In this document: positions 1 through 25,346 of the stretch, piece after piece | Layout of the letters: each line of letters opens with the position of its first letter | Position numbering within the stretch: position 1 is the stretch's first letter | Virus record (IMG/VR): IMGVR_UViG_3300008255_000443 | Location: 1-25,551 of that record | Strand: one strand, 5' to 3' | From: a virus | Lineage: Duplodnaviria; Caudoviricetes | DNA: 25,551 nucleotides | The notes under the pieces: generated by a model | The model's database searches: none | What the model saw: only the letters and a program-made list of their open reading frames with translations | Told to the model about the DNA's origin: nothing | Made by a program: the position numbers and the translations under genes

Positions 1-1682
1 ATAATTCCCTTAAACTCATCATCCATAAGATCCTCGGCACGCCTACCTAAGATACCGCGTTGTAGATCCAAAAATTCTTGAATTTGTTTCTCTGGTATGT
101 CTTGAGCCCTAAGAGCACCGACAATTGTGTTCTTCCATGAAGGTGTGAAGGATATAAGTTGAGTTGGATTTCCCTTTTCAAAAAGAACAGAAGCAGCATC
201 AGGTTCAATTCCAAGTCTAGGCACTTCATGCTGAAAGCTAACAGTACTTTGGTCAAATACATGAACCTTAGTTGCTATTCCTGCTTCTTTCTCAACTAGT
301 CCTTTAATTCCACGAGAAGCAGCATAGAGTTTTGTTGCTTCCTCAGCACTCGGGGCCTCAAACTTTAAGATTTCAACTCGGTTTTCATTCATGAATTGTC
401 GAAGAGAAGATACAGTTTCAAATTCGCTAGTGTCAACAACTCCTCTTCTAGCGGATCCTTCTTCTGCTGACCGTATAGCAAACCCGATCTGGTCGGCACT
501 AAGAGTAGCATACTCAGTTAGCTCTCTAAGTTTCTCAGACGAAGAACTAAAGACTTTAGAAAGTGTTCCTACACTAACTTCATTCGTAGATGGAGCAAAG
601 ACAATATGTGGCTTGTACGGATTTTTGACTTGTATACGACCAGGAACAACGGCTTCACCAGTTGCCATGTAGGTCTTACCACGATACTCAACTGCTTGTC
701 CCTCATAGAATCTTGTAGCCTGCCACTGAGCAATTTGCTTAGGAGATAGTTTGTCTCTTGGGTCAACAGGATTGTGAATTAAAACATCCTCAGCTTCTCC
801 TCCTAAGATTTTACGTCGTAGAATTTGAGCACCTTCTAACCTATTCTTAGCATAGTTAACAACATCATCTGCATTTTTTAAACCAAAGAGATTGATGGTA
901 GTTTCATGTGTTCTTGCTAAGTCTGAAAGAACCTGCTCAGTTGTTAGCTCAGGATTTCTAAGACCAATAAGCTCATCAATCAATCTTTCTGGACTCTTAG
1001 CATCGGTCGGACTTAAAGCATTTTCAATAGATAACTCAGCCGCTCCGACCGGAACGTCAGGATGAGGAGAACCAGTGTCTAATAATTTACCTACTCCCTT
1101 AGTCAGTGCTCTACTACGCATAGCTCTTACAAGAAATACACCTTCAATAGCTCCACCAAATCCTGCTCCTATAGCTAGATTCTTTGGAATGTCCTCTAAC
1201 TTCTCAGAAGTCCCTGCAAACTGAGCAGAACCTGCAATTACGTTACGTAAAAATCCAAAAGCTGCTTTGGATGCAACAGTTTCTCCTGCAACAATTCCAA
1301 CACCCCCTAGAACTAATCCTGTTACCTTAGCAATAGGAATAAAAGAAATACCAAGCCCGACCATAGAACCTAGAAACTCAGAAACTTGCTCACTAGCTTC
1401 ATCAATTCTAGGATCAACTTCTGAGTGACCTCGAATGAATGTAATAGGTTCGAGAATTCCTTTCTTCACACCTGCACCAAAAGACCCAATGACACCAATA
1501 TCTGGACCTTCTGCCTCAGAGAAGCCTACAAGCAACGGAGACTTAGATCCTAAAAATGCGAAAGGATCATCTTTCTCTTGCACAGGAACGGATTCACCCG
1601 ACCGCTGTGCCTCTAAAGACGCAACAGTTTCTCGACTTACCTTAGTTCTACCGAGAAAAGCAAATGGATCATTGCTTGCCAT
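1..1682 (-). CDS. Large internal virion/DNA ejection protein, 5' part only (>560 aa, runs off the window; absent from ORF track)
   Basis: Hand translation from ATG 1682 (directly after the TAA of the upstream gene, TAAATG) gives MASNDPFAFLGRTKVSRE...DDPFAFLGSK... with no stop down to position 1. It has Gly/Ala-rich hydrophobic segments (FLGSMVGLGISFIPIAKVTGLVLGGVGIVAG; LAIGAGFGGAIEGVFLV). It is the third and largest gene after the nozzle/GNAT genes, the usual position of the T7 gp16/P22 gp16-like ejection protein. Confidence 0.75.
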   Translation of the reverse strand, partial: MASNDPFAFLGRTKVSRETVASLEAQRSGESVPVQEKDDPFAFLGSKSPLLVGFSEAEGPDIGVIGSFGAGVKKGILEPITFIRGHSEVDPRIDEASEQVSEFLGSMVGLGISFIPIAKVTGLVLGGVGIVAGETVASKAAFGFLRNVIAGSAQFAGTSEKLEDIPKNLAIGAGFGGAIEGVFLVRAMRSRALTKGVGKLLDTGSPHPDVPVGAAELSIENALSPTDAKSPERLIDELIGLRNPELTTEQVLSDLARTHETTINLFGLKNADDVVNYAKNRLEGAQILRRKILGGEAEDVLIHNPVDPRDKLSPKQIAQWQATRFYEGQAVEYRGKTYMATGEAVVPGRIQVKNPYKPHIVFAPSTNEVSVGTLSKVFSSSSEKLRELTEYATLSADQIGFAIRSAEEGSARRGVVDTSEFETVSSLRQFMNENRVEILKFEAPSAEEATKLYAASRGIKGLVEKEAGIATKVHVFDQSTVSFQHEVPRLGIEPDAASVLFEKGNPTQLISFTPSWKNTIVGALRAQDIPEKQIQEFLDLQRGILGRRAEDLMDDEFKGI

Positions 1683-3161
1683 TTATCTGCCTATTGAATC
1701 AGGAGGGACCCTAAAATTATCTAACGAAGCTTGTGCCGTAGGACTAAGTTGATTGTAAATATCATCAGACGAAGGAGGAGTAAATCCTTTGCTTCCAAAG
1801 TTAACTAAGAAAGCCCCAAACTTAGTCCCAAGCGCATTTGCAGCATAGTTCATCGCAGGAGGAACACCGCGATCATGTAAAAGAGTTTCAAAGTTACTAG
1901 AAAATCCACCAGTTGAGGATTGTTTACTAACTTGCTCTTGCTCTTGCTCTTGTTCCCTCTCGGACATACCAGATGCAATGACAGCTACTAGTTTAATCTG
2001 AGCATCTTTTGGAAGCAACTTAAACATAGGACTTGCCTGTAGTTCCTGCAAAGAATTCTCACCATATATAACCATTTGAGCAGCTTGAGTCAAGCGATCA
2101 ACATACTCTGGCTTTACACCAAAAGTCTCTACCTTTGACCTGAACCCTAACAAAGTAGAAGCCTTTCGTGCTCCAGTAATCTCAACTGGAAGCATAGCAC
2201 CAGAAACAATCATAGATTGTCCATATGCTTTAAGCATATTAACATCTCTAATTGCTAATTCTTTCTCTTCATCACCACTAGCTACTTTAGCTCGATCAAT
2301 AGCATCATTTAAAGCAGTACGCCAGCGTGTTAAGTTTAAAAGCATATCGCTTTCATTACCAGTGTTCCTAGCTAAAGTAGAAGCAGCAGCAGCATCTAGT
2401 TGTTCATGCTGCATAACATGACCAGGAAAGTTTGGATTAGCAATTCCTGCCGCAGCCATTGCACGAAAATGATTACCTAATGGGGTGTTAGGTAAAGTAT
2501 TGATATATTCTTCATATGTATCAATAGCCCGAGAAGCCATACCAATGTTTTTTTGTTCGTATAGTCCTTTTAATCTCTCTGTATCTACACGAATTTGAGG
2601 TAAACCATCCTTGAGAGCAATAGTTGCGTACTCCGACCGAAGCCCTGCCTCATCAGTATCGGCTTTAAATCCAGCTACTTCTGATCTAGCTTTTAGTGAA
2701 GGAAAACCAAGCTTAGTTTGCTCTGCGTAATATTGAGAATCGAGATTGAGCTTAGAGATCTCATTACCAATTTTCTTAGGAATTATTCCAGTTTCTAATA
2801 TCGTCGTAGCTTCTAATTCAGCAACTTTAGCCGTCCCAATTTCAGCTCCAACCGTTGCTTCGACTCCTTTTCCTTTCCTAAAAGCAACATCCTTTAACTC
2901 TGCTGTATCAGGCTGAAACGCATCAGCAATATTGCTTTGTACATACTCCGGTCGGACTTCTAAAGCTCTAGCAAATGCCTCAAGCTGCCCAGCTTCAATA
3001 GCTCTACGAGCAGCAGGAGCGAGATTTGCAAGAACTTGGGGATTAGCAGCAAGTTCTTTTTCTCTATTCTTCTTACGATTTACTACATCTAAGACATCCC
3101 CAAGTCCCTTTCCAAAAGCTTGTCCTAATGCTCCTTGAGCCGGATCAACGAAAATAGCCAT
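1683..3161 (-). CDS. Putative DNA ejection (internal virion) protein, 492 aa
   Basis: Long Ala/Gln/Glu-rich, helical-looking ORF with an N-terminal GALGQAFGKGLG segment; second gene of the three-gene block after the tail genes. Call rests on position and composition. Confidence 0.6.
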   Translation of the reverse strand: MAIFVDPAQGALGQAFGKGLGDVLDVVNRKKNREKELAANPQVLANLAPAARRAIEAGQLEAFARALEVRPEYVQSNIADAFQPDTAELKDVAFRKGKGVEATVGAEIGTAKVAELEATTILETGIIPKKIGNEISKLNLDSQYYAEQTKLGFPSLKARSEVAGFKADTDEAGLRSEYATIALKDGLPQIRVDTERLKGLYEQKNIGMASRAIDTYEEYINTLPNTPLGNHFRAMAAAGIANPNFPGHVMQHEQLDAAAASTLARNTGNESDMLLNLTRWRTALNDAIDRAKVASGDEEKELAIRDVNMLKAYGQSMIVSGAMLPVEITGARKASTLLGFRSKVETFGVKPEYVDRLTQAAQMVIYGENSLQELQASPMFKLLPKDAQIKLVAVIASGMSEREQEQEQEQVSKQSSTGGFSSNFETLLHDRGVPPAMNYAANALGTKFGAFLVNFGSKGFTPPSSDDIYNQLSPTAQASLDNFRVPPDSIGR

Positions 3162-3167
3162 TTTTAT

Positions 3168-3902
3168 CTAACCCCTAAGTTGATTTGGGTTTAGTTGAAA
3201 AGGACTGGGGGAAACATTAGAGAAAGCTCCAAATGGAGCAGAAGAACCAGTACCACCAGAGGAAAAGAGATCAAATTGAGGAGTAACTCTAGCATTAGCC
3301 GCACCTCCAGATGTTACAGCCTGAGCAACTTTACCGGAGTTTTGAAGTAACCCAGACAAAATTTGATCCCCAATCCCAGGACTAACAATCAACTCCTCCG
3401 GGAGAATCCCCATTTGGGCAAAGCGTGAGAACAAATCAACATTACCTTGTCCAAGGTTCTGTAAAAGATTAATTGTATTTAAGAGTTGACCAGCATCAAA
3501 TTGAGCTTGATTCGTTCTAATCCCACCAATAGTCTGATCGAGATTAGATGCAACATCTCCTCTCAACCTAGCTTCTCCTAATGCCCCAGCCGACCCGAAC
3601 CTATTACCAGCAGCGCCAAATCCTTCTCTAAGATCCGCTGCCTGTCGGTTAGTCCTAGTTTCACTTCCTTTTGTAAGAGAAGAAATCAATTGAGAAGTTT
3701 GATTGCTGTCTTGACCAGAACTAACTCGCTCTTGAATACTATTCAAATACTGCTCTAATGCCGTCCCAGCATGACGTTGTAGAGGACCAGCACCTTGGCC
3801 AAAAGATCCCTCAGCAATCTGACCCTGTAGAATTTTTAAAAAATCATTCCCTAATGGAGTGGCCTGACTCCTCTGCTCCTCTCTTTGTACTCTCGGTCCC
3901 AT
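3168..3902 (-). CDS. Putative small DNA ejection/pilot protein, 244 aa
   Basis: Strong SD (AGGAGGT) upstream of the ATG. Gly/Gln/Ala-rich with a 'FGAAGNRFGSAGALGEA' segment typical of small podoviral ejection proteins; follows the GNAT gene. Confidence 0.6.
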   Translation of the reverse strand: MGPRVQREEQRSQATPLGNDFLKILQGQIAEGSFGQGAGPLQRHAGTALEQYLNSIQERVSSGQDSNQTSQLISSLTKGSETRTNRQAADLREGFGAAGNRFGSAGALGEARLRGDVASNLDQTIGGIRTNQAQFDAGQLLNTINLLQNLGQGNVDLFSRFAQMGILPEELIVSPGIGDQILSGLLQNSGKVAQAVTSGGAANARVTPQFDLFSSGGTGSSAPFGAFSNVSPSPFQLNPNQLRG

Positions 3903-4509
3903 CTTTACCTCCTAAGTATGACCCACCACATTTGAAACAAACTTGTTCGATTGACTTTCTACCTAACTCAAAAGATTCTCCACGAAGTATTGAGTAGGTA
4001 TTAACGTCAAACCACTTACCCTTGTAAAGAATCTCCTTCCTAAGTCTTCCTTCTCGTACAAATCCAATACGTTCAACTGCTTGGAGAGTATGATTAGCAT
4101 ATACTGGAACTTGAACTGAGATTTTCTCTAACTCATATTCTTCTATTACATACTCTATCATTTCTCGGCACAAAGCTTCACGCCCTGAAAATCTACGATC
4201 CCAAAACGCGAAGTGAGCCATACCTGAATGACTAATTCGTATATCATTTAGTAGAAAGATTCCTACATCATCAACCTCCCATATCAGGCCGGTCGGTACT
4301 AATTCATTTCCAGCTTGTCTAACGAAATGATCGACAAAGGCAGCAAAATCTCCCCGTACGAAGTCATTAAATAGAACATCAAAATCCTTTAGCTTCATCC
4401 AGAAAAACTTCAACTTCTCTATCGTTAGATGACAGAGCCTTACAGAACGAATAATCTCACCGTCAGGCTCGCTACATCTGACTTCACGTATAACTTGTCC
4501 CGTGTCCAT
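3844..4509 (-). CDS. GNAT-family (RimJ/RimL-like) N-acetyltransferase-fold protein within the tail module
   Basis: C-terminal signature N-x6-ERIGFVREGRLRKEILYKGKWFDVNTYSILRGE matches RimJ/RimL-type GNATs. GGAG lies 8 nt before ATG 4509. Overlaps both neighbours. Confidence 0.8.
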   Translation of the reverse strand: MDTGQVIREVRCSEPDGEIIRSVRLCHLTIEKLKFFWMKLKDFDVLFNDFVRGDFAAFVDHFVRQAGNELVPTGLIWEVDDVGIFLLNDIRISHSGMAHFAFWDRRFSGREALCREMIEYVIEEYELEKISVQVPVYANHTLQAVERIGFVREGRLRKEILYKGKWFDVNTYSILRGESFELGRKSIEQVCFKCGGSYLGGKDGTESTKRGAEESGHSIRE

Positions 4510-11791: not shown

Positions 11792-12029
11792 GATTTACCT
11801 GCCTTGCATCAAGGTGAACCTCATTAGTAGCCTCCTCAATGATCGCCCGCACATGAGAAGGACCTATAATTCTAACTGATTCGCTTAATTCCAAAAGTTC
11901 ACCATTGTCTAATACAAGTGATATTTTGGAGAATGGAGGAGGCTCAACTAGCCATTCCCCTTCCTCCAAATAAACTCTAGGACCCTCAAAAGGAGCAGTC
12001 CCTCCAGCTAAAAGGACTTTCTTCTTCAT
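11784..12029 (-). CDS. Hypothetical protein, 81 aa
   Basis: AGGA SD upstream; fills the operon gap and overlaps the endolysin start. Confidence 0.6.
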   Translation of the reverse strand: MKKKVLLAGGTAPFEGPRVYLEEGEWLVEPPPFSKISLVLDNGELLELSESVRIIGPSHVRAIIEEATNEVHLDARQVNHV

Positions 12030-12038
12030 AATCCTATC

Positions 12039-12746
12039 TTACCTTTCGGCCCAAACGCCGATGTAGTCAATACGATTAACGAACGTTCCAGTAGCAGAAC
12101 CGGACATAGCGAAGAAAGCCGGAGCCATATTCGCTGTAGGAATATTCGTTGTGATTAATGCAACTTCTTGACGATTTACGTAGAACCAAATATGAGTCGT
12201 ACTATACAGCCTAAACCCAAGCTTGACCCAAGTTGCATCAACAGCGTCTTCCTGAGAATCAACAGAAGTCTCAGTGTCATCCTTCTCAGACTTAGCAAGC
12301 AGAGAAGCAGCACCTTCTGCAATCTGAAATCCGATTCGATTAGACGACGTAAGACATGCTTCGGGATTGGTTGCAAAATTCTCACACAATCCTACAAACA
12401 TATCACAATCATCTACATCATGCAGCTTAACGTAAGCTTCAAACCAAAGACTCTTTCCTGTCTGTGCAGCAAAAACCTCATTCCCCTGAATAGACGCACC
12501 ATCATTGTCCGTCGTAGCAGTTGAAGTAAGGTCTAATACACCATGCTGAATATCTGCTTCAATACCGACAGCAGCACCAGCATCCTTGACAACAGTCCAG
12601 TCATTCGTCTGATCGTCGTCAACCATAACGAAGTCATCAAACAAAGTTACATAGTCTGGATTGTTTTGCACCGGAAGATCCCGAAACCATTCCCGGTCAA
12701 CATCAATACCGGAATCGAGAAGGGGACCAGAATAGTGAGAACTCAT
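12039..12746 (-). CDS. Putative virion (capsid-associated) protein, beta-sandwich/lectin-like, 235 aa
   Basis: Directly after the MCP with strong SD (GGGAGG). 'LFDDF...WFEAYVK...MFVGL...WVKLGF...FYVN...IDYI' is a ConA-like beta pattern. Confidence 0.55.
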   Translation of the reverse strand: MSSHYSGPLLDSGIDVDREWFRDLPVQNNPDYVTLFDDFVMVDDDQTNDWTVVKDAGAAVGIEADIQHGVLDLTSTATTDNDGASIQGNEVFAAQTGKSLWFEAYVKLHDVDDCDMFVGLCENFATNPEACLTSSNRIGFQIAEGAASLLAKSEKDDTETSVDSQEDAVDATWVKLGFRLYSTTHIWFYVNRQEVALITTNIPTANMAPAFFAMSGSATGTFVNRIDYIGVWAER

Positions 12747-12761
12747 CTTTATCCCCTCCCT

Positions 12762-13667
12762 TTAAGCTGCGTCAGAGCCAATCCAACCACGGGCATCGTA
12801 GAAGTAATTAAGGAACCTCTGACGAGACACGAAGTAAGATGTGCGAGTAGAAGCCTCATACCAATCCTCAAACTGAGGCTTGACCTTCCAAAGACAATGA
12901 GCATCATGGATCGTACTATCCCGAGCAAACCAATCCTTACCAGACTGATCCTTATAGTGAGAGACAGTATAACCAAGCTGACGCTTACGCCGCGTAGCAT
13001 TGACATTACGATCCGCAGTGAAGGGCTGATTCTCATTCTGCGTAAGCTGAATCGCCATCCACTCATTCGCAATATTGATAATTAAGTGGTCAATCCGCAC
13101 AGGAATGGGATCGCCACGGTTATCAACAGTCTGCTCACCAAGCTCAAACGCAGCTTGTAATCCAGCCACCCCAAGTTGAAGGTTGCCAGAAATTTGATTA
13201 GACCAAGTACCTGCGGATGAAATCAAAGTGTGAGTAGTAGAACAAAGAGCTTCGCCACCAAATCCAGTAAACACAGAGCCAGTAAAAGCATCGTCTAAGA
13301 AATCAGCAGCACCATACTCTTGGGTTAATCTCGTAGAACGACCAAGCCACTTAGCACTTTGATTGGCCTTTCCATAAAGATCATCCTCCATCTGTTCCTT
13401 CGTCACACCAAAACCCAATCCATACTGAGCATCGGTCTTAGTGATCTTCGGGGCGAGTTCAGCGTCAACGAAGGTGTAGCTCTCACCTTCACCAAGCACA
13501 ACCTGGCGAGGAAGCCCACTCATCGAAGTCATTTCGATCTCAGCTCGATCCATCGTACCGATTCTGAGGATTTTAGAATACTCCTCATCAAAGCTCTGAT
13601 AAGAATCTCGGAAATCCCTCCGCAGTCCAGGCCGCAGAAGGTGATTAAATGCGCCACGAGTGTGCAT
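12762..13667 (-). CDS. Major capsid protein (HK97 fold, Mu gpT-like family), 301 aa
   Basis: Motifs LLRPGL, GEGESYTF, YGLGFGVTKEQMEDDLY, DAFTG...GEALCSTTH and terminal 'YDARGWIGS'; perfect SD GGAGGT; position after scaffold and decoration genes; more C-ending codons, as expected of a highly expressed gene. Confidence 0.85.
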   Translation of the reverse strand: MHTRGAFNHLLRPGLRRDFRDSYQSFDEEYSKILRIGTMDRAEIEMTSMSGLPRQVVLGEGESYTFVDAELAPKITKTDAQYGLGFGVTKEQMEDDLYGKANQSAKWLGRSTRLTQEYGAADFLDDAFTGSVFTGFGGEALCSTTHTLISSAGTWSNQISGNLQLGVAGLQAAFELGEQTVDNRGDPIPVRIDHLIINIANEWMAIQLTQNENQPFTADRNVNATRRKRQLGYTVSHYKDQSGKDWFARDSTIHDAHCLWKVKPQFEDWYEASTRTSYFVSRQRFLNYFYDARGWIGSDAA

Positions 13668-13680
13668 TTGCTATACCTCC

Positions 13681-14154
13681 TTATTGGCCAATGACGGAAG
13701 GAATAACCTTGAAGAGAACCGCGTTCAGCTCAGTGAAAACCTTAGTCACAAAAACATGAACGTTAGTTGTATCCTCTTCATCGACATACCACTCACCAGC
13801 GGTCGGCTCGATAAGGCCAAAATCATTGCCTTCATGTGTCCCGGCCGCAGCAGTAGCAACAGCAACTCCACTTACATCATAGACCTGTGCGAGAAATTCT
13901 TGATCCGCTGTGGCAATAGCTACAGGAATTGTCGTTCCAAACGATGGAGTACCGGCAACAACAGCAGCCATTGCAAATCCTACAAGGCCCGTGACAGTAG
14001 TACCACCAGTAAAGGCTTCGATCAATTCAGGATCAGCAGAACTTCGCTGAACAGGCTCACCAATTGCAATCGCAGCAGCAGACGTAGGAGTCATTTGTGC
14101 AACTACAACTTGCTGTCCAGCCTTGCGCGCAGGCTGAATTCTAATCAGCCCCAT
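13681..14154 (-). CDS. Putative capsid decoration/cement protein, 157 aa
   Basis: Ala/Thr/Val-rich, 'AIAIGEPV...LVGFAM' pattern; immediately upstream of the MCP; AAGGA SD. Confidence 0.55.
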   Translation of the reverse strand: MGLIRIQPARKAGQQVVVAQMTPTSAAAIAIGEPVQRSSADPELIEAFTGGTTVTGLVGFAMAAVVAGTPSFGTTIPVAIATADQEFLAQVYDVSGVAVATAAAGTHEGNDFGLIEPTAGEWYVDEEDTTNVHVFVTKVFTELNAVLFKVIPSVIGQ

Positions 14155-14172
14155 GTTATAATTCCTTTATAG

Positions 14173-14721
14173 TTAAAGTTCGACAACAGGAACAGTCCAA
14201 TGTGAAGTCTCGGACTGTGCTCGCTTTGATTCAGATTGACGACGCCTACGCTCAATCCGTTCAAGCTTTACTAATTTGTTCGCAATGTAAATTTCTTCTG
14301 GTATAACCATGAGAATGGTATCACCCATGCGAACCCTTCTATCCGCCGTACCAGTCGGCGTCTTCTTGGAAGCCTTTTCATCAAGAAAAACTTCCCATCC
14401 CAAGGCTTCGGCCCGAGAAATCTCAAGATCAGACTCAAGCATAAATTCACCAACGAATCCCTTGGGAACTAATTTCAAGAGTCTTTCGATTCCATCTAAA
14501 ACCGGGCCTCTTGAAAGAATTTCTACTGACTTTGCTTTTGCTTCTCTAATGCGCTCTAGCTTATCTACAACTTGTTGATTAGTAAGAGACTTTGAATCAA
14601 TTCCAAATTTCTGCAAGAACTTTCGACCAGCTTGAACCTGATCTCCTGCATAAACAGGAATTTCTGATGTCTCCAGCTCCAGAACACCAGAATCCATTGA
14701 AACGTCAGCTAACGTAGACAT
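14173..14721 (-). CDS. Conserved head-module hypothetical protein, 182 aa
   Basis: TAATG overlap with the scaffold stop. 'ISRAEALGWEV...VRMGDTILMVIPEE' resembles proteins I recall between scaffold and capsid genes in this phage type (not verified). Confidence 0.55.
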   Translation of the reverse strand: MSTLADVSMDSGVLELETSEIPVYAGDQVQAGRKFLQKFGIDSKSLTNQQVVDKLERIREAKAKSVEILSRGPVLDGIERLLKLVPKGFVGEFMLESDLEISRAEALGWEVFLDEKASKKTPTGTADRRVRMGDTILMVIPEEIYIANKLVKLERIERRRRQSESKRAQSETSHWTVPVVEL

Positions 14722-15596
14722 TATTGAGTTACTCCAAGCTTAGAAGTTGCAACATCACGTTCATCCACTTCAAGCCAGTTTAAATACTCTTCATCTGACT
14801 TAAATCCTTGCATCCTAGATACTGCCTTTTCACTTTCAGTTAAAGCTCGAAGCTTAGACTTTCCTCCATCCTGTGGATGAATTGGCTGCCTAGAAGCAGA
14901 ATGCTGTGGAGGAGCAGGACGAGAAGAAGAAGGAGAAGGAGAAGACACAGGAATTCCTGTAGAATGAGAAGCAGTAGAATCTATACCAATCGAATCACGA
15001 GCATCGAGATAGAACAATCTAATAGTACCAGCATTAGGCTCCGTGATTCCGTGTTTGACAATCTGTGTTTCAATGTAATCTCTGTATTGATCTAAGTCTG
15101 AATAACGCTCACGAACAGTCGCCCAGGCGTTATTTACCTTAGTAACAGCAACATCTTCACGAAAAGGTTGAATGATTTCATTCAAATGATTAGTTAACTT
15201 ACTAAGCAACTTCTCATCCCTTGCAGCCAATACCTTTCCTGGATCTGCAAAGAATTGTTCAGGAGTAATATCAGGCTCGGGCTGAGAAGGAATAGCAGGT
15301 GCAGCAGGAGCATTTGTGTTTCTAGCTACATCATTTAATGCTCTTCCTTGCTCTCTGACAGTCGCCTCCATAGTTGCGTATCGCTGTGCAACCTCTTGTG
15401 GAGTCAAACCATCCAATCCTGGAATACCCGCAAACGGACTTTCAATACCCGTAGGCGAATGGTCCTGGTCCGTCAGTTCCTGATTCGATTGGTCCTGCGG
15501 AGGATCGTCTGTGTGCGTCTCTCCGTCTCCTGACATGCCTGGATCTTCCTTCCGATCCTGCAAGATTGTCCGTGGATAAATCTTCTGATTCCTCAT
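14721..15596 (-). CDS. Capsid scaffolding protein
   Basis: Acidic/Pro-rich disordered N-terminus, coiled coil, 'FFADP', Ser/Pro linker, C-terminal 'LTESEKAVSRMQGFKSDEEY' capsid-binding-like helix. Start set at ATG 15596 (GAGG SD); 15536 is an alternative. Confidence 0.7.
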   Translation of the reverse strand: MRNQKIYPRTILQDRKEDPGMSGDGETHTDDPPQDQSNQELTDQDHSPTGIESPFAGIPGLDGLTPQEVAQRYATMEATVREQGRALNDVARNTNAPAAPAIPSQPEPDITPEQFFADPGKVLAARDEKLLSKLTNHLNEIIQPFREDVAVTKVNNAWATVRERYSDLDQYRDYIETQIVKHGITEPNAGTIRLFYLDARDSIGIDSTASHSTGIPVSSPSPSSSRPAPPQHSASRQPIHPQDGGKSKLRALTESEKAVSRMQGFKSDEEYLNWLEVDERDVATSKLGVTQ

Positions 15597-15873
15597 GGCT
15601 AACTTCCTCTCGACTAGAGATTTGATAGATAACATCTAAGGCTTGTCTAAAGCCCACTCCGATCTTTACCCGAGCCAGGGCTTCTTCTCCTGTAGAAGAA
15701 TTCTCCTGATCTGCGAGTAAACTTGAATATTGCTCCTCTAAGAGCAATATTAAAATCTTAAACCCTTCTGATTTAATTGTCTTATTTAATTCTTGAAGAT
15801 CAGCTTCCTCCAACTCCACTAGAAAGTCTTGGAGTGGAAGATGCTCCAGAAGCTCCTGCGTTCTCGGGTTCAT
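15442..15873 (-). CDS. Small helical protein between portal and scaffold
   Basis: Protein-like core 'SEGFKILILLLEEQY...ARVKIGVGFRQALDVI' fills the portal-scaffold gap; probable ATG at 15873; overlaps both neighbours. Confidence 0.55.
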   Translation of the reverse strand: MNPRTQELLEHLPLQDFLVELEEADLQELNKTIKSEGFKILILLLEEQYSSLLADQENSSTGEEALARVKIGVGFRQALDVIYQISSREEVSHEESEDLSTDNLAGSEGRSRHVRRRRDAHRRSSAGPIESGTDGPGPFAYGY

Positions 15874-17740
15874 TTTGCTGACTAGCCCCACCAGTTAAAG
15901 TAAATTCCTCTGCATCTGGTATTCCAAAGGTTTCAGCGAGTCTAGTTAGCACAGCATCAGATGTAATCAATGCTCTCTGTGCAATGGTCGCCAAGATAGT
16001 AGGATCGCCAGTAATTTGAGCAAAGATTTGTGCGAACTGAGCAGCTTCTCTATAGTAACTAGTAAGAACTTGGAAGAGAGTAAGCCATTGTCTTTGCTCA
16101 ACATCCTTATTTGTAATTGAATCAGTAACTGTTAGTTTAATAATCGCACCCTTTCGTACAAGGATGGAGGGCATATTTAAAACTTTCTCTATCTCTACAC
16201 CATCATCCCCTACTACTAACCAATGTATTTGCTGCGTACCAAAAAGCTGCATATTAGTGACAACATCATAACCAATTAAGCTAGAGAATCTCTTTACATT
16301 CTTGAGAACAAGGTCAAATCTTTTATTCCCTTCTGCCAATCGCGAGAGATCCGAAGTTGCAGTTCCAGGAGTTCCTTCTTGGGGGAGCCCAAGGATAGCT
16401 TCATTTGCACCCGTTCTCTTTTCAAAGTATCGTACAATGCTTTCCTCATTGTTGTAAGAAGAGGGATAGACTTCGGATAGTTTAAACTCCTTAATATCAT
16501 TTTGGACATTATCAACAAACCACATTTTTCCAGGGAATAGAGGTTCTCCATCACCATATCCGAGACCTTTTCTAATAACAATCTGTGCCATATTAGCCAG
16601 CGTTGCATTGTCCAAACGCTGACGATGGATCGTTGTTGCCTCTTCTTGGAATTGCTCCGTTTGCTTACAGATCCCAATACCAACCCAAATTCCTTCAACT
16701 GGAATATATCGACAAGTTCTATAGGGCCTATGTAAATCATCGTACCAATTATAACGAATAGAAAGAATTGTTCTAGTTTCCTTGTGGTAATCTAAAACAA
16801 TTTCTTCATCCCATCCATCGCCATCTACATCAAATGAAACCCAAAGCTCATGGACGTTGAATATAGAAGTCCAAAGAGGCTCTGCATTTGAATGTTTATT
16901 AATTGTCTCTTGTACTTCATTTACATCATTAACCGACCCAGGTTGATTCTTTAATACCCAAGTGTGCCGGATCTTCTCAATTGCCGACCCAAGCATTCTA
17001 CCAGATTGAGCCATTCTTTTAAGCTGACTCCAAGTAAACTCGTGCTTCTCTCCTACAAGTTGTGCTAGCTGAGGATCAAGGTCGGCAAAGCGCATTACGA
17101 AGTTACCAAGGGGAACTCTCTCTACAACCCCACCGTTTCGGATTGTAGCATAGACCTCCTCCTCAGCATCCCCTACTTTCTTCAAGCCCTTCTTAATAAT
17201 CTTCTCATATCCAGTCTTTGCAACAGCCGTCCCGAGCTTACAAAACTCTAAAAGCCATTCATTATAGAACTCATAGAGCCTCAGACCATCAGGAGCTTCT
17301 ACTTCTGACTGTAAAAACTCCTCAAGAGGCTTTGCAGTCGTCCTCCACTCCTTGGATTTCGCCCTAATACTCCAAAATGGCTCTACGGCGAATAAAGTAT
17401 TCATAAATCTTGCTTGAATTGCCTCTACAGCAATAGCAGCAAGAGGAATTACTACATTCGCAGCCCTTTTGAAGGGGAAATTCCGTTCTTTTGTAGCCGG
17501 AGCAGCCCAATAGAGTGTTTGATAACGCTTCCAATCCTCCATCATGGGCTGACGTTCTGTATAAAAAGCATTTAGCTCTTCGTCAATCCAAGTCTTTAAC
17601 CTATCTTCAACATCTACATCTAAATTAAGCATCCGAGGCCAATTGCCTTTGGTGTCAGCATCTGTATTTGGCTTAACTCCACCATCTACAGGTGCATCTC
17701 CACGGAATGCTGGATCTTGGTATAAGGCTAAAGAGGACAT
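15800..17740 (-). CDS. Portal protein, 646 aa
   Basis: Size and position after TerL; motifs 'FPFKRAANVVIP', 'LGTAVAK', 'GIWVGIGI...Q...R..LDNATLAN', 'PGKMW', 'TGANEAILG...TAT'. Confidence 0.85.
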   Translation of the reverse strand: MSSLALYQDPAFRGDAPVDGGVKPNTDADTKGNWPRMLNLDVDVEDRLKTWIDEELNAFYTERQPMMEDWKRYQTLYWAAPATKERNFPFKRAANVVIPLAAIAVEAIQARFMNTLFAVEPFWSIRAKSKEWRTTAKPLEEFLQSEVEAPDGLRLYEFYNEWLLEFCKLGTAVAKTGYEKIIKKGLKKVGDAEEEVYATIRNGGVVERVPLGNFVMRFADLDPQLAQLVGEKHEFTWSQLKRMAQSGRMLGSAIEKIRHTWVLKNQPGSVNDVNEVQETINKHSNAEPLWTSIFNVHELWVSFDVDGDGWDEEIVLDYHKETRTILSIRYNWYDDLHRPYRTCRYIPVEGIWVGIGICKQTEQFQEEATTIHRQRLDNATLANMAQIVIRKGLGYGDGEPLFPGKMWFVDNVQNDIKEFKLSEVYPSSYNNEESIVRYFEKRTGANEAILGLPQEGTPGTATSDLSRLAEGNKRFDLVLKNVKRFSSLIGYDVVTNMQLFGTQQIHWLVVGDDGVEIEKVLNMPSILVRKGAIIKLTVTDSITNKDVEQRQWLTLFQVLTSYYREAAQFAQIFAQITGDPTILATIAQRALITSDAVLTRLAETFGIPDAEEFTLTGGASQQNEPENAGASGASSTPRLSSGVGGS

Positions 17741-18406: not shown

Positions 18407-20149
18407 TTAATATCCAGTTAGAATCGAACGTTCGGCTAAGAGATTGTTAACTAACTGTGTAGTTTGCTCAATTGACCTAGTATCCATTCCTGATTTCCAA
18501 AATTCTGGACCCTGAGCAAGGGAGTCTAGCAGATGCTGACTTTGACCCATAGGAAATTGCTCATACTCATCTCGGAAATCATGCATATTCTCGTGAACAT
18601 ACACTTGACCAGCAGAGAAAAAGTGTGCTAATCCTCTAATACGAGCTTCTTTTGATCTTTTTGACCCAGGCTTATACGGAGTTATAGGAAGATTGACTCT
18701 ACTTTTAGCAGATTCCCGCTCAATCCAATAACGATAAATGCCAGAGAAATTAACTTCTTCAATCGCAAAGACCCTTGGACGATACTTCATGTAAAGCCTA
18801 AACGCATTATCGACAAATTCAGGAGGACGAAGGCGCTTTTTGATAGTCTCCAAGAGGTATATGTTAGACTCTTTATCGACCCCAGTAACAACGATACCAG
18901 TCTCATCAGCTTGATTCGATTCTCCCATCGAAGGATCGCAGAAGATGTAAATTGCAAGGTCCCGTAAAAGAACCTTACGCATCGGTCGGTTAGGATCTCC
19001 AGTATCTACACTTATGTTACCATTAAAGTCTACTTTATAATACTTGAGAGGCCAGATAAATTCTGTAAGCCCTGCCTCCATTGGGTTATTAGCATATTGA
19101 GAAGCCCAAACGAATGAGTTCTTTCTAAGAATATTCAGCTTTCCATGAGAGAATCCAGAAAGATATTGTTTCTTCTCATTGTATTGAATTGGAAAGACAG
19201 GTTCTCCATGCTCAATGGCTCCACGGGCATAAACTCGAAGAAGCCCGTTAGAGTGATCTTCTAAATCTTTCTTAGACAAACAGTTCGTAACAGAATTTCG
19301 ATACCTAAGCTTACGTCCATTTGATTCAACTAATGTACTTCCTGTATCTATTCCATAGATCTTTATGGCATGAGAGTAAATGTCTGAGAAAGCCCAGCGC
19401 GTTCCAATCAAATCCCAACCATCAATTTCAAGATCCGTCAACAATGAACCAATGTTATCAAACCAATTATTAATCCTATTCATTACTGTCTCAGAATTTG
19501 CTGCGTCCTCTCCAACTAAGTCATCTAACTTGAGCCAATGATAGTGTCCTGATTGAGCTGCACCACCAGCACCAATTGTTGAGAAAGTTGCATGTCTATG
19601 CTGATCTTCACGAGGAAGTTCTAATTCCCATTTATTAATCCTCTGGACTCTCTTCGATGGAATACATTCAGGAAATAGCGCAAGCATTGTTTCGTTCTTT
19701 GTAAATGCTGATGCGATTTCAAACAAGAACTCAGATGCTTTCTCTCGAACTTCGTGTGCGATGAGGAGCTTTAAATTTGGGCCATGAGCATAAGGATGAG
19801 CTTGTAAGACATCACCCACGTTAGGCAGGGCCATTTGGATAGAGTCTGTTATTGTATTTAACGTACTCTTATAATGACCTCTTGCAAAAAGCGTTAGACG
19901 ATATTGCTGTCCCCTCTGTCGCTCAAGCCATTGTGTGTAATGCCCATGAAAGACTGGATGGAGCTTTTTGTATCCTAAAATAGAGGCGAGGAAATAAGTA
20001 TCATACTTCATTCTGCGACGAAGATGCTCAATGGAGTTTGAATCAAGATCCTCGTATTTCTTCTCAGCCGACTGACGCCGATCAACTAAATCTTGCTCGT
20101 CAACTAATGCATCGAAATCTTCATCAGTATGTTCAATAAAGTCTGTCAT
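18407..20149 (-). CDS. terL: Terminase large subunit, 580 aa
   Basis: Walker A-like ARGHYKST, Walker B WLKLDDL, motif III IGTRW, nuclease IFCDPS, DETGIV, IEEVNF, SKEARIRGL, FP-G...HLLDSL. Confidence 0.93.
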   Translation of the reverse strand: MTDFIEHTDEDFDALVDEQDLVDRRQSAEKKYEDLDSNSIEHLRRRMKYDTYFLASILGYKKLHPVFHGHYTQWLERQRGQQYRLTLFARGHYKSTLNTITDSIQMALPNVGDVLQAHPYAHGPNLKLLIAHEVREKASEFLFEIASAFTKNETMLALFPECIPSKRVQRINKWELELPREDQHRHATFSTIGAGGAAQSGHYHWLKLDDLVGEDAANSETVMNRINNWFDNIGSLLTDLEIDGWDLIGTRWAFSDIYSHAIKIYGIDTGSTLVESNGRKLRYRNSVTNCLSKKDLEDHSNGLLRVYARGAIEHGEPVFPIQYNEKKQYLSGFSHGKLNILRKNSFVWASQYANNPMEAGLTEFIWPLKYYKVDFNGNISVDTGDPNRPMRKVLLRDLAIYIFCDPSMGESNQADETGIVVTGVDKESNIYLLETIKKRLRPPEFVDNAFRLYMKYRPRVFAIEEVNFSGIYRYWIERESAKSRVNLPITPYKPGSKRSKEARIRGLAHFFSAGQVYVHENMHDFRDEYEQFPMGQSQHLLDSLAQGPEFWKSGMDTRSIEQTTQLVNNLLAERSILTGY

Positions 20150-20658
20150 TCAATAACTTCAAAAGAAGCCTCTTCAATTGCCTCTGAGTCATTGTCTCCT
20201 GTATGAAGACTCTTTGCTTCATTTGCACGCTCTAGTGCATTGGTGAATTTTTCTAATAAGCTCACAGAGACTTTCTGCTCGTGGTTTACTGCGCTTGGGT
20301 CGGCTCCATTCAAGAAACCCTTGCCTTTCATAATCTCTAAGGCAACTTTATCTTGATGCTTCTTTGCGTCAGTTCCTGGAATGAAATCCTGTTCTAAAGT
20401 CTCGGAAACTCTATTAACACTAATTTCAGTGAGTTTAAGTAACTTATCACTAACATCCGACCCGAATCGCTCTCGGATCCTATCCATCTGAGAAGCAATA
20501 AGGGCCTGAGCCTGTGGCGTTTGAAGAATTTGATAAATTCTCTCAGGAGTCATTCTCGTATAGTTAGCAATAGCTATATTATTCCATCCTCCGAGATGGA
20601 GCATTACGACATTCTCGTGACGAGGCTTCCAATTCTTTAACGCAGGTACAGAAGACAT
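20146..20658 (-). CDS. terS: Terminase small subunit (N-terminal HTH), 170 aa
   Basis: HTH-like 'GWNNIAIANYTRMTPERIYQIL' followed by helices; ATGA overlap with terL. Confidence 0.65.
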   Translation of the reverse strand: MSSVPALKNWKPRHENVVMLHLGGWNNIAIANYTRMTPERIYQILQTPQAQALIASQMDRIRERFGSDVSDKLLKLTEISVNRVSETLEQDFIPGTDAKKHQDKVALEIMKGKGFLNGADPSAVNHEQKVSVSLLEKFTNALERANEAKSLHTGDNDSEAIEEASFEVIE

Positions 20659-21132: not shown

Positions 21133-21390
21133 TTACGGTGCGATACTGCCCTGAGCCTTAATGAGTAGGGCGTCGAGAAAACTCTTGATAGCCGTAACCT
21201 GTGCGGCGGTCAGGTGCGGGGTGAGGTTGCCGTTCCTCACGTCTACGGGAGTGCCAGTCGCGTCCAAAATGTCAAAGGTGTAGCGCCCGGCGTAGTCGTT
21301 AGGAGATCCGGATGTGACGGTGAGGATGATTTCCAGCGTTTCTACCGAAGTAGGTACGCGGGTACTTGGTGCGAAGCTGTCTGTTGCCAT
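21133..21390 (-). CDS. Small GC-rich protein, probable tail-fibre assembly partner, 85 aa
   Basis: AAGGAG SD overlapping the fibre stop; same high GC as the fibre 3' end. Confidence 0.55.
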   Translation of the reverse strand: MATDSFAPSTRVPTSVETLEIILTVTSGSPNDYAGRYTFDILDATGTPVDVRNGNLTPHLTAAQVTAIKSFLDALLIKAQGSIAP

Positions 21391-21400
21391 GGGTGGCTCC

Positions 21401-22378
21401 TTAGACTACGGCGAGTTGGACCGTCGCCCCGTTGATCCGGGCGAATACGGCGGTGGTGGTGGTCCAGATGTCTCCATTCACGGGGCTGGTCGGTGCGGTA
21501 CCGTGAGGCAAGCAAAGCGATGCGCGGGCCGTGGTAGATGCGCCAATGTGGAGTAGGGCAGTAGGCCCCGTCGTCCCGATGCCGACGTTGCCACCGACTT
21601 TAATTGTTAGTCTTTCTATGCCTGATGACAGGAAATTTATATCTTGATAACTTCCATCTACACCAGGAAACGAAGAAGCAAGATTCCAATCAGAGCCGTC
21701 ATTGTAAATACTAAAGAACGAACCATCTGAGGCACCAGTTACATGAACACCAGAGTTAATATCACTTGCACTTTGTTTGACATTAAGTTTAGAGACGGGG
21801 CTCACTGTCCCTATACCGACGTTGCCCGCGTCCGTTATCCGCAGCCGCTCAACCCCTGCCGTGGACGCGGCAATGGTATCCAGCGCCGGGAACCACCAGC
21901 CGGTGTTCAGGTCGCCTGTGGGTGCGATAGAGGGCGTGGTGACCGCTCCGGCTGCGAAGGATGCGGTCTTGGTCGTGGAAATACCCATAGGCACGCCATC
22001 TCGCCCGTCGAACGTCACCACCGCATCGCCAGCCGTGTTACGAAGATTGAGCACGCCGCCTGTCGTCGTCTGAACAAGCTCCGTACGCTCAGAGTTTCCG
22101 CTATCACGGAGGCTGACATCGTGTAGTGTGCTTGCGCCGCTTGCACTCAGCGTCGTGAACGCCCCCGCAGCCGGGGTAGTCGCGCCCACGGCACCATTAA
22201 CTGGCCCAACAAACCCAGCCGCAGTTATAACTCCTGCATAATCTACATAAGCCTTAATTGCTCCAGCGTTCTTCCATTCCCAAAGTCGCCCACTTGTAAA
22301 TGTAACAGAAGTATCTACAAAATGTGCAACTCCACCATCAGCAATAGCTGAAACAAGTCCAAGTGCTCCTGTTGCCAT
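21401..22378 (-). CDS. Mosaic tail fibre-like protein with two GNVGIGT repeats, 325 aa
   Basis: Fibre motifs GATTPAAGAFTTL, GDLNTG, ERLRITDAGNVGIGT, ERLTIKVGGNVGIGT, GTAPTSPVNGDIW; AAGGAG SD. Confidence 0.75.
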   Translation of the reverse strand: MATGALGLVSAIADGGVAHFVDTSVTFTSGRLWEWKNAGAIKAYVDYAGVITAAGFVGPVNGAVGATTPAAGAFTTLSASGASTLHDVSLRDSGNSERTELVQTTTGGVLNLRNTAGDAVVTFDGRDGVPMGISTTKTASFAAGAVTTPSIAPTGDLNTGWWFPALDTIAASTAGVERLRITDAGNVGIGTVSPVSKLNVKQSASDINSGVHVTGASDGSFFSIYNDGSDWNLASSFPGVDGSYQDINFLSSGIERLTIKVGGNVGIGTTGPTALLHIGASTTARASLCLPHGTAPTSPVNGDIWTTTTAVFARINGATVQLAVV

Positions 22379-22388
22379 TTAATTCTCC

Positions 22389-22631
22389 TTACTCTACACC
22401 AACTAATCTATTGTTAGAAAGAACTCCAGCAGTTCCACTAATACCAAATCCCTGTAAAACACCACCTACTTCCACAAAGAATAGCCCTGTTGAAGAAGTA
22501 CTCCATCCTTGAACTCTACTTTCAAATTCAACAGGATAAACTAAATTCCCTCCCCCTCCTCCTCCCTCTCCTCCTCCCTCTCCTGCAATACCTGTTATCA
22601 CAGTTGGATGCGTAATAGAAGTAATACTCAT
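22389..22631 (-). CDS. Gly-rich hypothetical protein, 80 aa
   Basis: GAGGT SD; GEGGGEGGGGGG linker encoded by a purine tract; fills the operon. Confidence 0.5.
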   Translation of the reverse strand: MSITSITHPTVITGIAGEGGGEGGGGGGNLVYPVEFESRVQGWSTSSTGLFFVEVGGVLQGFGISGTAGVLSNNRLVGVE

Positions 22632-22642
22632 TTTCTCTACCT

Positions 22643-22972
22643 CTACCTAACTTCCTCAACGCCCTTAATAACAAAAACCCTCTCCGCAGCTTCCGCAGAA
22701 GCACTAACTAATCTCAAGGCATCCCATCCAACATAGTCAATAGCAACAGCCGACCCAGCAGGTACTTCTACTTGAGTACCTCCAGAGTAAAGCGTTTGAA
22801 AGCTCCCTCCATCATCCCCACTAACCTTCACCGTAACTGTACTTGTCAAACTAGCAGGAGCAAAAATCGTAATTCCCTTCATCCACCTAGTCTTTTTACT
22901 ATCCAACACATCACTCTCTGTTCCACTAATCAAAATCCTAAGCGACCCTAGACTAACTGGATTACTTATCAT
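22643..22972 (-). CDS. Small beta-sandwich putative virion protein (~109 aa), first gene of the late block
   Basis: 'VTVKVSGDDGGSFQTL...ALRLVS' pattern; ATG 22972 (AGGA upstream) preferred to TTG 22999. Confidence 0.55.
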   Translation of the reverse strand: MISNPVSLGSLRILISGTESDVLDSKKTRWMKGITIFAPASLTSTVTVKVSGDDGGSFQTLYSGGTQVEVPAGSAVAIDYVGWDALRLVSASAEAAERVFVIKGVEEVR

Positions 22973-23215
22973 TTTTCTTTTCCTGTATTCTAAATTCAAG
23001 GATAGAGGACCCCGACGTACCTCCCCATGTTCAATCTAACACCTAGAGGGTGGTCGGCGCAAGACTCTCCTTCCCATCTCCCTAGGGTCATTCTCCCTCA
23101 CCCTCTTCGGTCGGCTCTCCCTCCCCTTTCCTCCTCCCTCCTCCGAAATTTTTTTTTCTATTTTAATATACCTATTTCAAATTTTGGTGCGAAAATTAGA
23201 GAAACTGTTCGGCCC

Positions 23216-23352
23216 GCAGCTTATCCGCAATTTTGGGGGTGCCGGGTAGCTTAGACGCAGTTAGTTATATGAATATGTCTATGTGTATATATAGCAGCAT
23301 AGACGCATAGCAGCTTATACGCATTGCGCAGGATATACGCTAGCGGATACGC
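23216..23352. repeat. Cluster of degenerate 14-bp direct repeats, consensus G(C/T)AG(C/G)(T/A)TA(T/G)(A/C)CGC(A/T)
   Basis: GCAGCTTATCCGCA 23216, GTAGCTTAGACGCA 23246, GCAGCATAGACGCA 23294, GCAGCTTATACGCA 23310, GCAGGATATACGCT 23328. Confidence 0.7.
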
Positions 23353-23370
23353 TGCGAGTTAGAGGTAAAT

Positions 23371-23425
23371 AAAAAAAAATCCCCCCCGGTCCATGTCCGA
23401 TGTCCTGGACAGGACCGAGAGGGAA
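23371..23425 (-). terminator. Rho-independent terminator closing the GC-rich two-gene unit
   Basis: Minus strand reads CCCUCUCGGUCC-UGUCC [8-nt loop] GGACA-U-GGACCGGGGGGG followed by A-U9. The G-U pairs work only on the minus strand. It begins about 10 nt after the stop at 23436. Confidence 0.85.
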
Positions 23426-23435
23426 ATTCCCGCTG

Positions 23436-23630
23436 TTACTCTACCGTACGCACGCGGGTTAGACGCCATCCGAAAGGAAGCGTATAGACTGTGCGTACGT
23501 GAATACAGGCTTCAACATTGTATGCGGTGTGCATAGCTGCAACCTCAAGTTGAGCCGCCTCCAGGGTTGAGAACGATCCGACCTCGGAATCATTGTACCA
23601 ATTGGGTACGTGAACGTAGTAATACCGCAT
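23436..23630 (-). CDS. Hypothetical protein, 64 aa
   Basis: SD AAAGGAG 8 nt before the ATG; 'VGSFSTLEAAQ' resembles small early phage proteins; followed by the terminator. Confidence 0.6.
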   Translation of the reverse strand: MRYYYVHVPNWYNDSEVGSFSTLEAAQLEVAAMHTAYNVEACIHVRTVYTLPFGWRLTRVRTVE

Positions 23631-23731
23631 CTTACGCGCTCCTTTCTTCTAGGGTGATTGGAGCCCCGGGATATGATCCCTGACAAGGCGCGACATCCGC
23701 CAAGGCTCCGAACCTACTTACTTACCGCAGC

Positions 23732-24190
23732 TTATGCGATAACATCCGCATAGATTGCCGCGATATCCGTACCGGACAGCTTCTCACCACGAGCCAGACG
23801 GGCCTTCACTTCCGCTCCGGCCAGCTCCGCCCGATCCACGTAGCGCGGGGCGCTTGCCGTCGGGAGGATCGTCAGGGAATCCCCAACGGTCATTGGAGTC
23901 AGATCCGTTGCGATAGAAGCCAAAGCCGAATTGACGGCGTTGACTAGAAATGCTTCTCCGTCCCCACCGGCCTTGGTGATCTGTTCTTGAATGAAGACAA
24001 CTCCGGCATTGTTCTGAACGGACGGGACATTTACGGGAATGTCCTTTCCATAGGTGTCGGTGTTCGGGTCTCCATCCTTCCACCCATCGGGCTTCTTCCC
24101 AAGGGTCCGCAGTTGCGTCTGGATGCTGACGCCTTCGGGGAGGGCCTTCGGGAGCTTCCATCGCATTACTTCAGCCTTCGTGCGAGCCAT
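23732..24190 (-). CDS. Hypothetical GC-rich protein, 152 aa (probable early gene)
   Basis: GGAG SD, MARTK start, about 63% GC (hand count 23761-23940). Confidence 0.7.
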   Translation of the reverse strand: MARTKAEVMRWKLPKALPEGVSIQTQLRTLGKKPDGWKDGDPNTDTYGKDIPVNVPSVQNNAGVVFIQEQITKAGGDGEAFLVNAVNSALASIATDLTPMTVGDSLTILPTASAPRYVDRAELAGAEVKARLARGEKLSGTDIAAIYADVIA

Positions 24191-24429
24191 GGTACATTCT
24201 CCAGCTAGAGATTGGTCGGCGCTTGTCTAGAACGGGGGGCCGACCGATGCCCCGAGACTAATTACCGCCGGATGTCGAGTGCAGCTTAGGCGCGCTTTCG
24301 CCTCTGTCAGCTTCCGGCTCGATCCTCTAGTGCGACATCTCGCGGGGTGTCCTTTCGCGGTTGCTCCCTAGACTAGGGTCCCGCTCGCGAGGGCGATCCT
24401 AGAGAATCTCAATCATCTTTCCTACATGA

Positions 24430-24458
24430 AAGGTCGCTCTTTTTAGGTTCGGCGTCAA
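24430..24458 (-). promoter_or_regulatory. Possible sigma70-type promoter for the GC-rich unit
   Basis: TTGACG-N17-GACCTT on the minus strand; good -35, weak -10. Confidence 0.25.
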
Positions 24459-24689
24459 TCCTTTTGAGCCCCAAAAAGCCCGAAGCGCACCCGAAACTTT
24501 GATGAATGTTTTCTTCGGTCTCTCTTCGGTTCCTCCGGCCTCTCCGGCCCCTAGCCTCCTCCCTATATATATATATAAAGGTTCTAGCCCGACCTTCGTG
24601 TAATGGAATGGAATGATGTGGAATGGGCACATGTGGAATGGGCATCGAAGGTGAGGGAAAGTGTGCCGAAGGGCACCCGAAGGGCCAAC

Positions 24690-25111
24690 CCCTTCAACCT
24701 TCTCCCAACTACCAACTGGGGTCAATTATCCCAATTGGAGGTGAGGGAACCCACACACCCGTTCTCGCACAAGGGCTTTCGGATGGGTGACTAGTCTTCC
24801 AACCAACTCTCATCCCAATTGGGATAATTGGAGGGTAGGGCATACCCCCCTTCGAGGAGGCATAGGGGCAAAGGCATATCCGTATATATAGATATTCATA
24901 TGTTTAAAAAAAAAAAATAAAAAAAAAGAACTACTACTACCCCCCTAGGGGGTGCCCATGGGGGTCCAATTATCCCAACTGGCCCAACTGGAAGTTGGGA
25001 GACTAGTCAAGGACCTCGAAAGCCCTACTCGCACAAGGGTTGTGGGGTTTCCATCGGGTCCCAATTGGGAGTCTGGGTACCAATTGGGATAATTGGAAGA
25101 AGGTTGAAGGG
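24690..25111. repeat. Nested inverted-repeat element around an AT-rich/poly-A core (origin-like)
   Basis: Arm pairs 24690-24710/25091-25111 (19/21 identical) and 24789-24832/24965-25008 (33/44, ungapped), plus CCAAYTGG boxes at 24712/25080 and 24731/25061. All share a centre at ~24899-24900. Confidence 0.8.
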
Positions 25112-25346
25112 ACAGGAGTAAACCCGAAGAGAAGCCGAAGGGAGAGGCCCTAGGATGCCCTAGGAGGGACCGGGCGAGCCGACCCGAACGAGGGGGCTCT
25201 GATTTTCCCAAGGCTCCCCTAGACCCCGTAGAAGGTCGGAATAGGCACGTTAGGCTATAGGAATACCATCCCAAGGGTGTTAGATTACTCTACGGGCCGA
25301 GCGCCCTCCGAGGCACAATTCCTAGTTTTTAAAAGGGGAGAAAAAA

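Follow-up and report, generated by a model that had tools for sequence, protein, structure and literature searches.

DNA uptake sequences are dispersed, over-represented and located inside genes, and T7 gp4 is an example of a primase with recognition sites. HIP1 of cyanobacteria (GCGATCGC) has likewise been described as a dispersed, over-represented word inside genes. The recombination signal Chi, which has been described as known for five species (10.1101/2020.08.13.249359), is reported for phage P1 as its most frequent octamer, which lies on both strands, shows no coupling to codon use and is as dense outside open reading frames (ORFs) as within them (10.1101/2021.07.08.451572). Lambdoid phages with a recombinase and without a RecBCD inhibitor are also described as over-representing Chi (PMC3784561). 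Here we describe a hexamer, CCGACC (reverse complement GGTCGG), in a 25,551-nucleotide stretch of DNA of a tailed phage (Caudoviricetes; IMG/VR record IMGVR_UViG_3300008255_000443), which consists of this single contig and is referred to as the window at its full length. Like Chi in P1, CCGACC is the top word of the window, occurs on both strands, is uncoupled from codon use and is found in ORFs and non-ORFs, and we tentatively read it as a Chi-like signal of the host.

CCGACC is over-represented at the DNA level

A first-pass annotation of the window, made by a model from the sequence, had described 37 dispersed copies of the word (491..25239), and our recount agreed with it at every coordinate. 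On the + strand, GGTCGG was found 20 times (at 491, 1005, 2950, 4291, 5839, 6859, 6883, 7563, 9203, 10701, 11544, 13801, 17080, 18984, 20298, 21488, 23052, 23109, 24214 and 25234) and CCGACC 17 times (at 1045, 1357, 1598, 2633, 3590, 5172, 10854, 16933, 16984, 17847, 17982, 20457, 22750, 23578, 24240, 24589 and 25179). Fifteen copies extend to CCGACCG, 11 to CCGACCC and four to CCGACCCGA, and 27 of the 37 lie in the first 21 kb, all as annotated. On its 3' side the word has a soft preference for S-R-A (26, 26 and 19 of 37 copies), and no separate bipartite extension was seen.

The window has a GC content of 42.9%. Under Markov nulls of orders 0, 1, 2 and 3, the 37 copies compare with 6.6, 5.1, 4.8 and 7.5 expected, and CCGACC ranks first among hexamers under all four; a fourth-order null would condition on CCGAC and CGACC, which are themselves made by CCGACC. 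The enrichment is five- to eight-fold on both strands, compared with 15-300 fold as described for HIP1 and with median observed/expected ratios (O/E) of 2.4-4.8 for the Chi comparison. In 1000 synonymous-codon shuffles of the 29 genes, the 29 coding copies stood against 5.13 ± 2.07 expected (maximum 12, z 11.5), and the runner-up word had a z score of 5.1. These coding copies are 16 sense and 13 antisense in five of the six frames, in genes with a GC content at third codon positions of 0.31. Outside ORFs, 1.9 kb of non-coding DNA contained 8 copies against 1.35 expected. Other GC-rich hexamers were not equally frequent, with a median of 5 copies over 221 hexamers and 18 copies for the next unrelated one. 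The shuffle score, the five frames and the excess outside ORFs thus bear out the annotated view that the signal lies at the DNA level and not at the codon level. Over-representation beyond codon use, independence of frame and an asymmetric word are the marks by which Chi sites are judged, and CCGACC has all three.

A plain codon shuffle can mislead. In phage Kuura (L213) the 7-mer GTCCCTC occurs 33 times, is absent from three other Caulobacter phages and was considered as an analogous case; 25 of its 30 coding copies are in one sense frame, a strong sense-strand codon-pair preference (xxG TCC CTC) that traps codon-shuffle nulls, and the analogy was rejected. The shuffle probably misled also in G002, where TCCCACC was set aside as sense-linked and confined to 2 of 6 frames, and in G013, where TCCCGG, on both strands but in 2 of 6 frames, was left out of the count. 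That CCGACC owes its excess to codon pairs, amino acids or composition is nevertheless extremely improbable: the word is raised in five of six frames in the window and in its relatives L129 and G001, still passes when its best frame is dropped (p 1e-9.6), and is raised outside ORFs. For the window, the artefact reading is refuted.

Related words in the phage family

Two relatives carry CCGACC as their top hexamer. G001, the closest complete relative at 48.5 kb, which aligns to the window at 65-75% nucleotide identity over long matches, has 32 copies against 7.5 expected (30 against 8.4 in codon shuffles), and L129, a replication-arm contig, has 22 against 2.9 (z 12.3). Of the window sites, 20 align with G001 and three are kept there, compared with 15-17% for any hexamer. 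The density of CCGACC is conserved between the relatives and its position is not. None of 12 listed strain differences falls in a site (three runs, two of them with small shares only). In G001, CCGACC is raised on one strand only (25:7), and the word may be in transition there; CCGACG is also raised (20 against 7.2; L003:14978-17443), mostly in the structural arm.

We then applied a strict test, with a frame-specific null, the best frame of each word dropped and a correction for the number of hexamers, to 58 sequences; AT-richer words are harder to detect in this test. Of 107 loci, 35 with a length of 5 kb or more were scored and 20 were taken into the strict test, most short or duplicate loci being left out and some loci being replaced by whole records. 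Ten of the 58 sequences passed. All ten belong to the family defined by a shared capsid type or helicase clade (10 of 33 inside against 0 of 25 outside, Fisher p 0.003), in a set whose rows are not independent, as the three CCGACC genomes are close kin and L023 and L106 are one contig. The passing words are CCGACC in G000, G001 and L129, GCCCGC in G003 and L156, TGGCCC in G004 (borderline), ATCCCG in G006, CCCGGC in G021, CCGGCC in a phage contig in G019, and CCCGCC in L172. G009 and L196 narrowly missed the threshold, and G015 and L169 were weaker. Words are common to close kin (G000, G001 and L129; G004 and G009), and GCCCGC is found in three members (G003, L156 and L169) that do not group as sisters in the helicase tree.

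No passing word was found in the low-GC members G002 (complete), G010, G014, L023/L106, L144, L158 and L167, or in any of seven distant GenBank phages with the PolA and DUF3987 module (PaP2, VS-ABTNL-3, LS06-2018-MD01, Mel-JY34, Kuura, Tiera and ctMlz233). A family consensus CC-N-R-C was rejected, as only 5 of 27 genomes fitted it compared with 9 for GC..G. When gene presence was compared with the word in 11 complete genomes, no real gene tracked the word (best p 0.088); most of the rows with p 0.024 were judged from their sequence and position to be shadow ORFs in three high-GC genomes. The SNF2 protein was also rejected as the reader, the G019 phage having a word and no SNF2 match.

The annotation had stated that the word has no strand bias. 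This holds for the window (17:20) and L129 (9:13) and not for the family, in which seven complete genomes with a word are polarised as a pool. In this pooled set the C-rich form is commoner on the reading strand of the early genes, in both arms; in the early arm the ratio is 106:63 (control share 0.48, p 1e-4), and the polarity follows the physical strand, not gene direction. Both orientations are enriched in the pooled genomes (O/E 3.4 and 2.0). Of 18 strand sets, 17 have randomly spaced sites and one has sites more regular than random; mean gaps per strand are 1.1-2.3 kb in 16 of the 18.

The other half of G001 encodes an SNF2 helicase, a pyrimidine-dimer glycosylase, a PD-(D/E)XK nuclease, a Sak4-like protein and GroES, together with a DUF3987 protein and a UDG-exonuclease/PolA that is split. 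Among 32 G001 proteins from ORFs of at least 60 aa, Pfam and PHROGs gave no match to a methyltransferase and none to a primase family (AEP, TOPRIM), a search that could miss a divergent enzyme; the sole primase-like annotation is a PHROG label on the DUF3987 helicase. DUF3987 has been classed with MCM-related helicases, and phage 119X has been named as a case without a detectable primase (PMC4889955). Both 119X and PaP2 are distant matches of the DUF3987 helicase of the family. As the nearest cultured replicons, the 119X/PaP2-type phages (Fredfastierviridae) resemble the family in having PolA followed by the DUF3987 helicase and in the convergence of these genes on a giant internal virion gene; they differ in helicase sequence (about 21% identity), in having a Dda-like in place of the SNF2 helicase and in carrying no word that passes the strict test. 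The DUF3987 protein had nothing significant among Protein Data Bank (PDB) sequences, a conserved 193-aa protein had no match in Atlas or BFVD, and the giant internal proteins (881-2035 aa) had no Pfam domain in the two tested.

A possible host Chi-like signal

The CCGACC-type words are likely selected signals. We propose, at a probability of about 0.42 and by analogy with P1, that CCGACC/GGTCGG is a Chi-like recombination signal of the host that is under selection in the phage. Selection for such a signal would keep the density of the word. A host enzyme of the AddAB/RecBCD type would read it, presumably with the G-rich GGTCGG as the active strand, and linear or broken phage DNA would then be repaired and recombined rather than degraded. 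Where a branch has another word, its hosts would have another Chi word; where it has none, it may block the enzyme or may have a composition that already supplies enough sites.

The genomic signature is like that of Chi in P1, and it is by this signature that CCGACC may be placed with Chi. The Sak4-like protein and the PD-(D/E)XK nuclease of G001 can be set beside the recombinases of the lambdoid phages. As with Chi generally, the family words are short, asymmetric and G-rich, and their G-rich forms GGTCGG, GCGGGC, GCCGGG, GGCCGG, GGCGGG, CGGGAT and GGGCCA bear a resemblance, and a resemblance only, to the known Chi words AGCGG, GAAGCGG, GCGCGTG and GCTGGTGG (as given in 10.1101/2021.07.08.451572). 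Unlike known Chi, read by RecBCD or, in Bacillus, Staphylococcus and Lactococcus, by AddAB, CCGACC/GGTCGG is a hexamer and matches no listed Chi sequence, and unlike Chi of P1 and the lambdoid phages, at least seven words occur within one phage family. A host-dependent signal fits better than an obligatory phage function, because the words are patchy (10 of 33) among members with the same replication core and absent from the seven distant phages. This patchiness within one replication module, together with the absence of a tracking gene, points to a reader on the host side. The annotation had used the lack of strand bias to set the word apart from Chi; this argument fails, since P1 has Chi on both strands and the seven pooled relatives show polarity. 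Its description of a dispersed, iterated DNA-level site in a phage is supported, and its suggestion of a site bound by a phage or host protein is retained as far as protection or recombination is concerned.

Several results weigh against a host Chi-like signal. The window and L129 lack polarity, and in the late arm of the pooled genomes the ratio of 150:75 (control 0.62, p 0.15) is not beyond composition. Unlike in P1, sites are not denser near the genome ends, which are presumed and not mapped (127 of 440 in the end bins, expected share 0.265, p 0.26). Synonymous G/C retention shows no excess inside sites (11/24, 8/22 and 26/52 against 51%, 42% and 49%, the last for the G004/G009 pair), in a comparison whose power is low because divergence is high. 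Seven words in one family would require seven host Chi words. E. coli Chi is scarce in the distant kin (PaP2 0 against 0.9, Tiera 1 against 1.3, VS-ABTNL-3 7 against 3.1). The metagenome-assembled genome (MAG) G019, which holds a family member (binning unverified), is not enriched for the word of its phage (99 against 101 in 114 kb), and in a 320 kb sample of the 6.2 Mb chromosome G281, from the same phylum as G019, none of nine words is enriched and skewed. As for the host itself, 301 genomes of the G019 phylum gave no spacer-like match and, outside G019, only short chance-level matches, and searches through capsid clusters, genome contigs (one MAG contig) and GroES homologues (3 matches) found no host.

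Alternative explanations

The word could instead serve for priming by an unrecognised primase activity that the phage encodes, a reading that we regard as doubtful. A 6-7 base site would be too rare by chance, and on this reading selection would raise it to about one copy per 1-2 kb on each strand; the observed mean gaps fit such a density. Word density is of the order of Okazaki spacing. The sharing of words by close kin and the polarity by physical strand are consistent with priming, and primase sites are, like CCGACC, short asymmetric single-strand signals. The family has PolA and the MCM-like DUF3987 helicase, with no primase family recognised in G001 apart from the PHROG label, and 119X, the named case of an absent primase (PMC4889955), has a helicase of the same family. 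The primase of NrS-1 is reported to use TTTGGTTA and GTG (PMC8718748), and GP55 of phage 1706 to prime at 5'-CCAAC-3', one base from CCGAC (PMC12205980); unlike for CCGACC, the available text of these two reports does not describe genome-wide enrichment of the sites. In Percy, a phage with its own primase that served as positive control, AGACCC is just below threshold (52 against 24) and GACCC is not raised. However, an essential signal would be expected in all members, yet the low-GC members named above and the seven distant phages carry no passing word, no candidate enzyme is at hand (the conserved 193-aa protein has no fold match), regular spacing is seen in only one of 18 strand sets, and the CC-N-R-C consensus failed. 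It is slightly more doubtful still that a primase-less podovirus family writes a branch-specific replication-start word into both strands, where an unrecognised phage enzyme of drifting specificity would read it and the genome would re-encode the signal.

Two further explanations involve proteins that bind or modify the word. It is unlikely that the word is bound by a small phage DNA-binding protein that evolves fast, or by an injected virion protein, with a role in coating, protecting, ejecting or packaging the genome. Such a protein would agree with words that differ between branches and are common to close kin, and candidates are the giant internal proteins and a putative reader encoded by a 152-aa ORF (23732..24190, - strand), which contains no copy, had no match in fold and family searches and has a divergent G001 counterpart that is also without a family. 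No candidate has a recognisable DNA-binding fold, though, the sites lie in both orientations inside genes, unlike operators, and GCCCGC is found in the non-sisters G003, L156 and L169. Somewhat less likely again is a host methylation or modification site that is accumulated by methylation-directed repair of the HIP1 or VSP type or that marks the phage as self. A process biased towards gain could produce the observed turnover of positions without measured excess retention; CCGG or GGCC is contained in several of the family words; and a ParB-methyltransferase gene is present in 3 of the 4 complete genomes that lack a word and in 1 of the 7 that have one (p 0.088, confounded with GC). Against methylation, CCGACC is not palindromic, G001 has no methyltransferase match, restriction-type words are avoided (CTGAAG, 1 against 15.8), and the 18 one-mismatch neighbours total 152 against 168 ± 11 in the window and L129, in which CCGACC has 54 copies against 7.2. 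Since the gain is 47 and the largest neighbour deficit is 9 (CCTACC; CCAACC is at 19 against 21), conversion of a single neighbour cannot supply the excess, which would leave a signal kept by selection or by a drive. The annotated reading of a HIP1/uptake-type or biased-repair site is therefore not favoured, the word being non-palindromic, a methyltransferase match being absent in G001 and the near-miss words not being drained. Unlike HIP1 and uptake sequences, CCGACC is a non-palindromic hexamer in a phage, with no linked methyltransferase in G001 and with no periodicity or positional conservation detected.

A literature search, with coverage that lacked most subscription journals and all supplements, found neither CCGACC nor branch-specific words described for phages of this kind. 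Should the words be host Chi, the family would read out candidate Chi sequences for uncultured hosts, and a chromosome polarised for GGTCGG would be an alignment-free host marker. If they are priming sites, they would provide a substrate for the priming mechanism that has been listed as unexplained in 119X (PMC4889955), and a drifting phage enzyme, if true, would answer how 119X-type replicons prime DNA synthesis. On either reading, a short oligonucleotide is a defined test substrate, and a change of word between branches amounts to a genome-wide re-encoding of a signal. The signal is solid, family-level and testable, and its reader is still a guess.

Genes and layout of the window

Judging from its matches to terminase, portal, a Mu-gpT-like capsid, endolysin, tail fibre and internal virion proteins, the window represents the structural half of a podovirus-like tailed phage, uncultured and about 50 kb in size. 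The leftward (- strand) structural arm includes internal virion proteins that are likely injected, with a GNAT-like protein (3..4509, 9 copies of the word), followed by the capsid, scaffold and portal block (11801..17740), where site density is lowest (4 copies, 0.67 per kb) and which contains the major capsid protein (12762-13667) and the portal (15800-17740). The large terminase subunit (18407-20149) and, by a weak match, the small subunit (20146-20658) are also on the - strand. Between this arm and the first rightward gene is a mostly non-coding, GC-richer region (23000..25346) with 8 copies (3.1 per kb), which from the gene layout is presumed to be the genome ends or an origin. An Rfam search of the window gave 0 matches.

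In this region, two word copies make up the arms of an inverted repeat of 10 bp that has a single mismatch (24211-24248), 20-60 bases upstream of the 152-aa ORF, and a related 36-nt block (23025-23060) stands upstream of the next leftward gene, possibly as a late promoter element. At 24690-25111, clustered direct and inverted repeats of the CCCAATTGGG type, a TATATA run and an A-tract make up a candidate origin or terminus, and the cluster is partly kept in G001. In the coding regions of the window the avoidance of CTGAAG is likely restriction avoidance, and TGATCA and TCTAGA are likewise avoided (0 against 6 expected).

Among the replication genes of the relatives, PolA (L004:16156-18694 and homologues) carries a UDG-like domain at its N terminus. 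It is divided between two ORFs, and the break comes after the exonuclease in G001, L129 and G002 and falls within the polymerase domain in G004-G009. The SNF2 helicase (L004:3182-5419) has a weak HARP match in its N-terminal part, which suggests a SMARCAL1-like fork remodeller, and is present in every complete family genome but that of the G019 phage. A fusion of ParB-N with an N6/N4 methyltransferase (L078:12251-13579) was found in the high-GC members G005, G007 and G008 and in the G019 phage, a stand-alone TSCPD-domain protein (L073:1980-2381) in 7 genomes, and GroES (L004:15319-15762) in all 11 complete family genomes.

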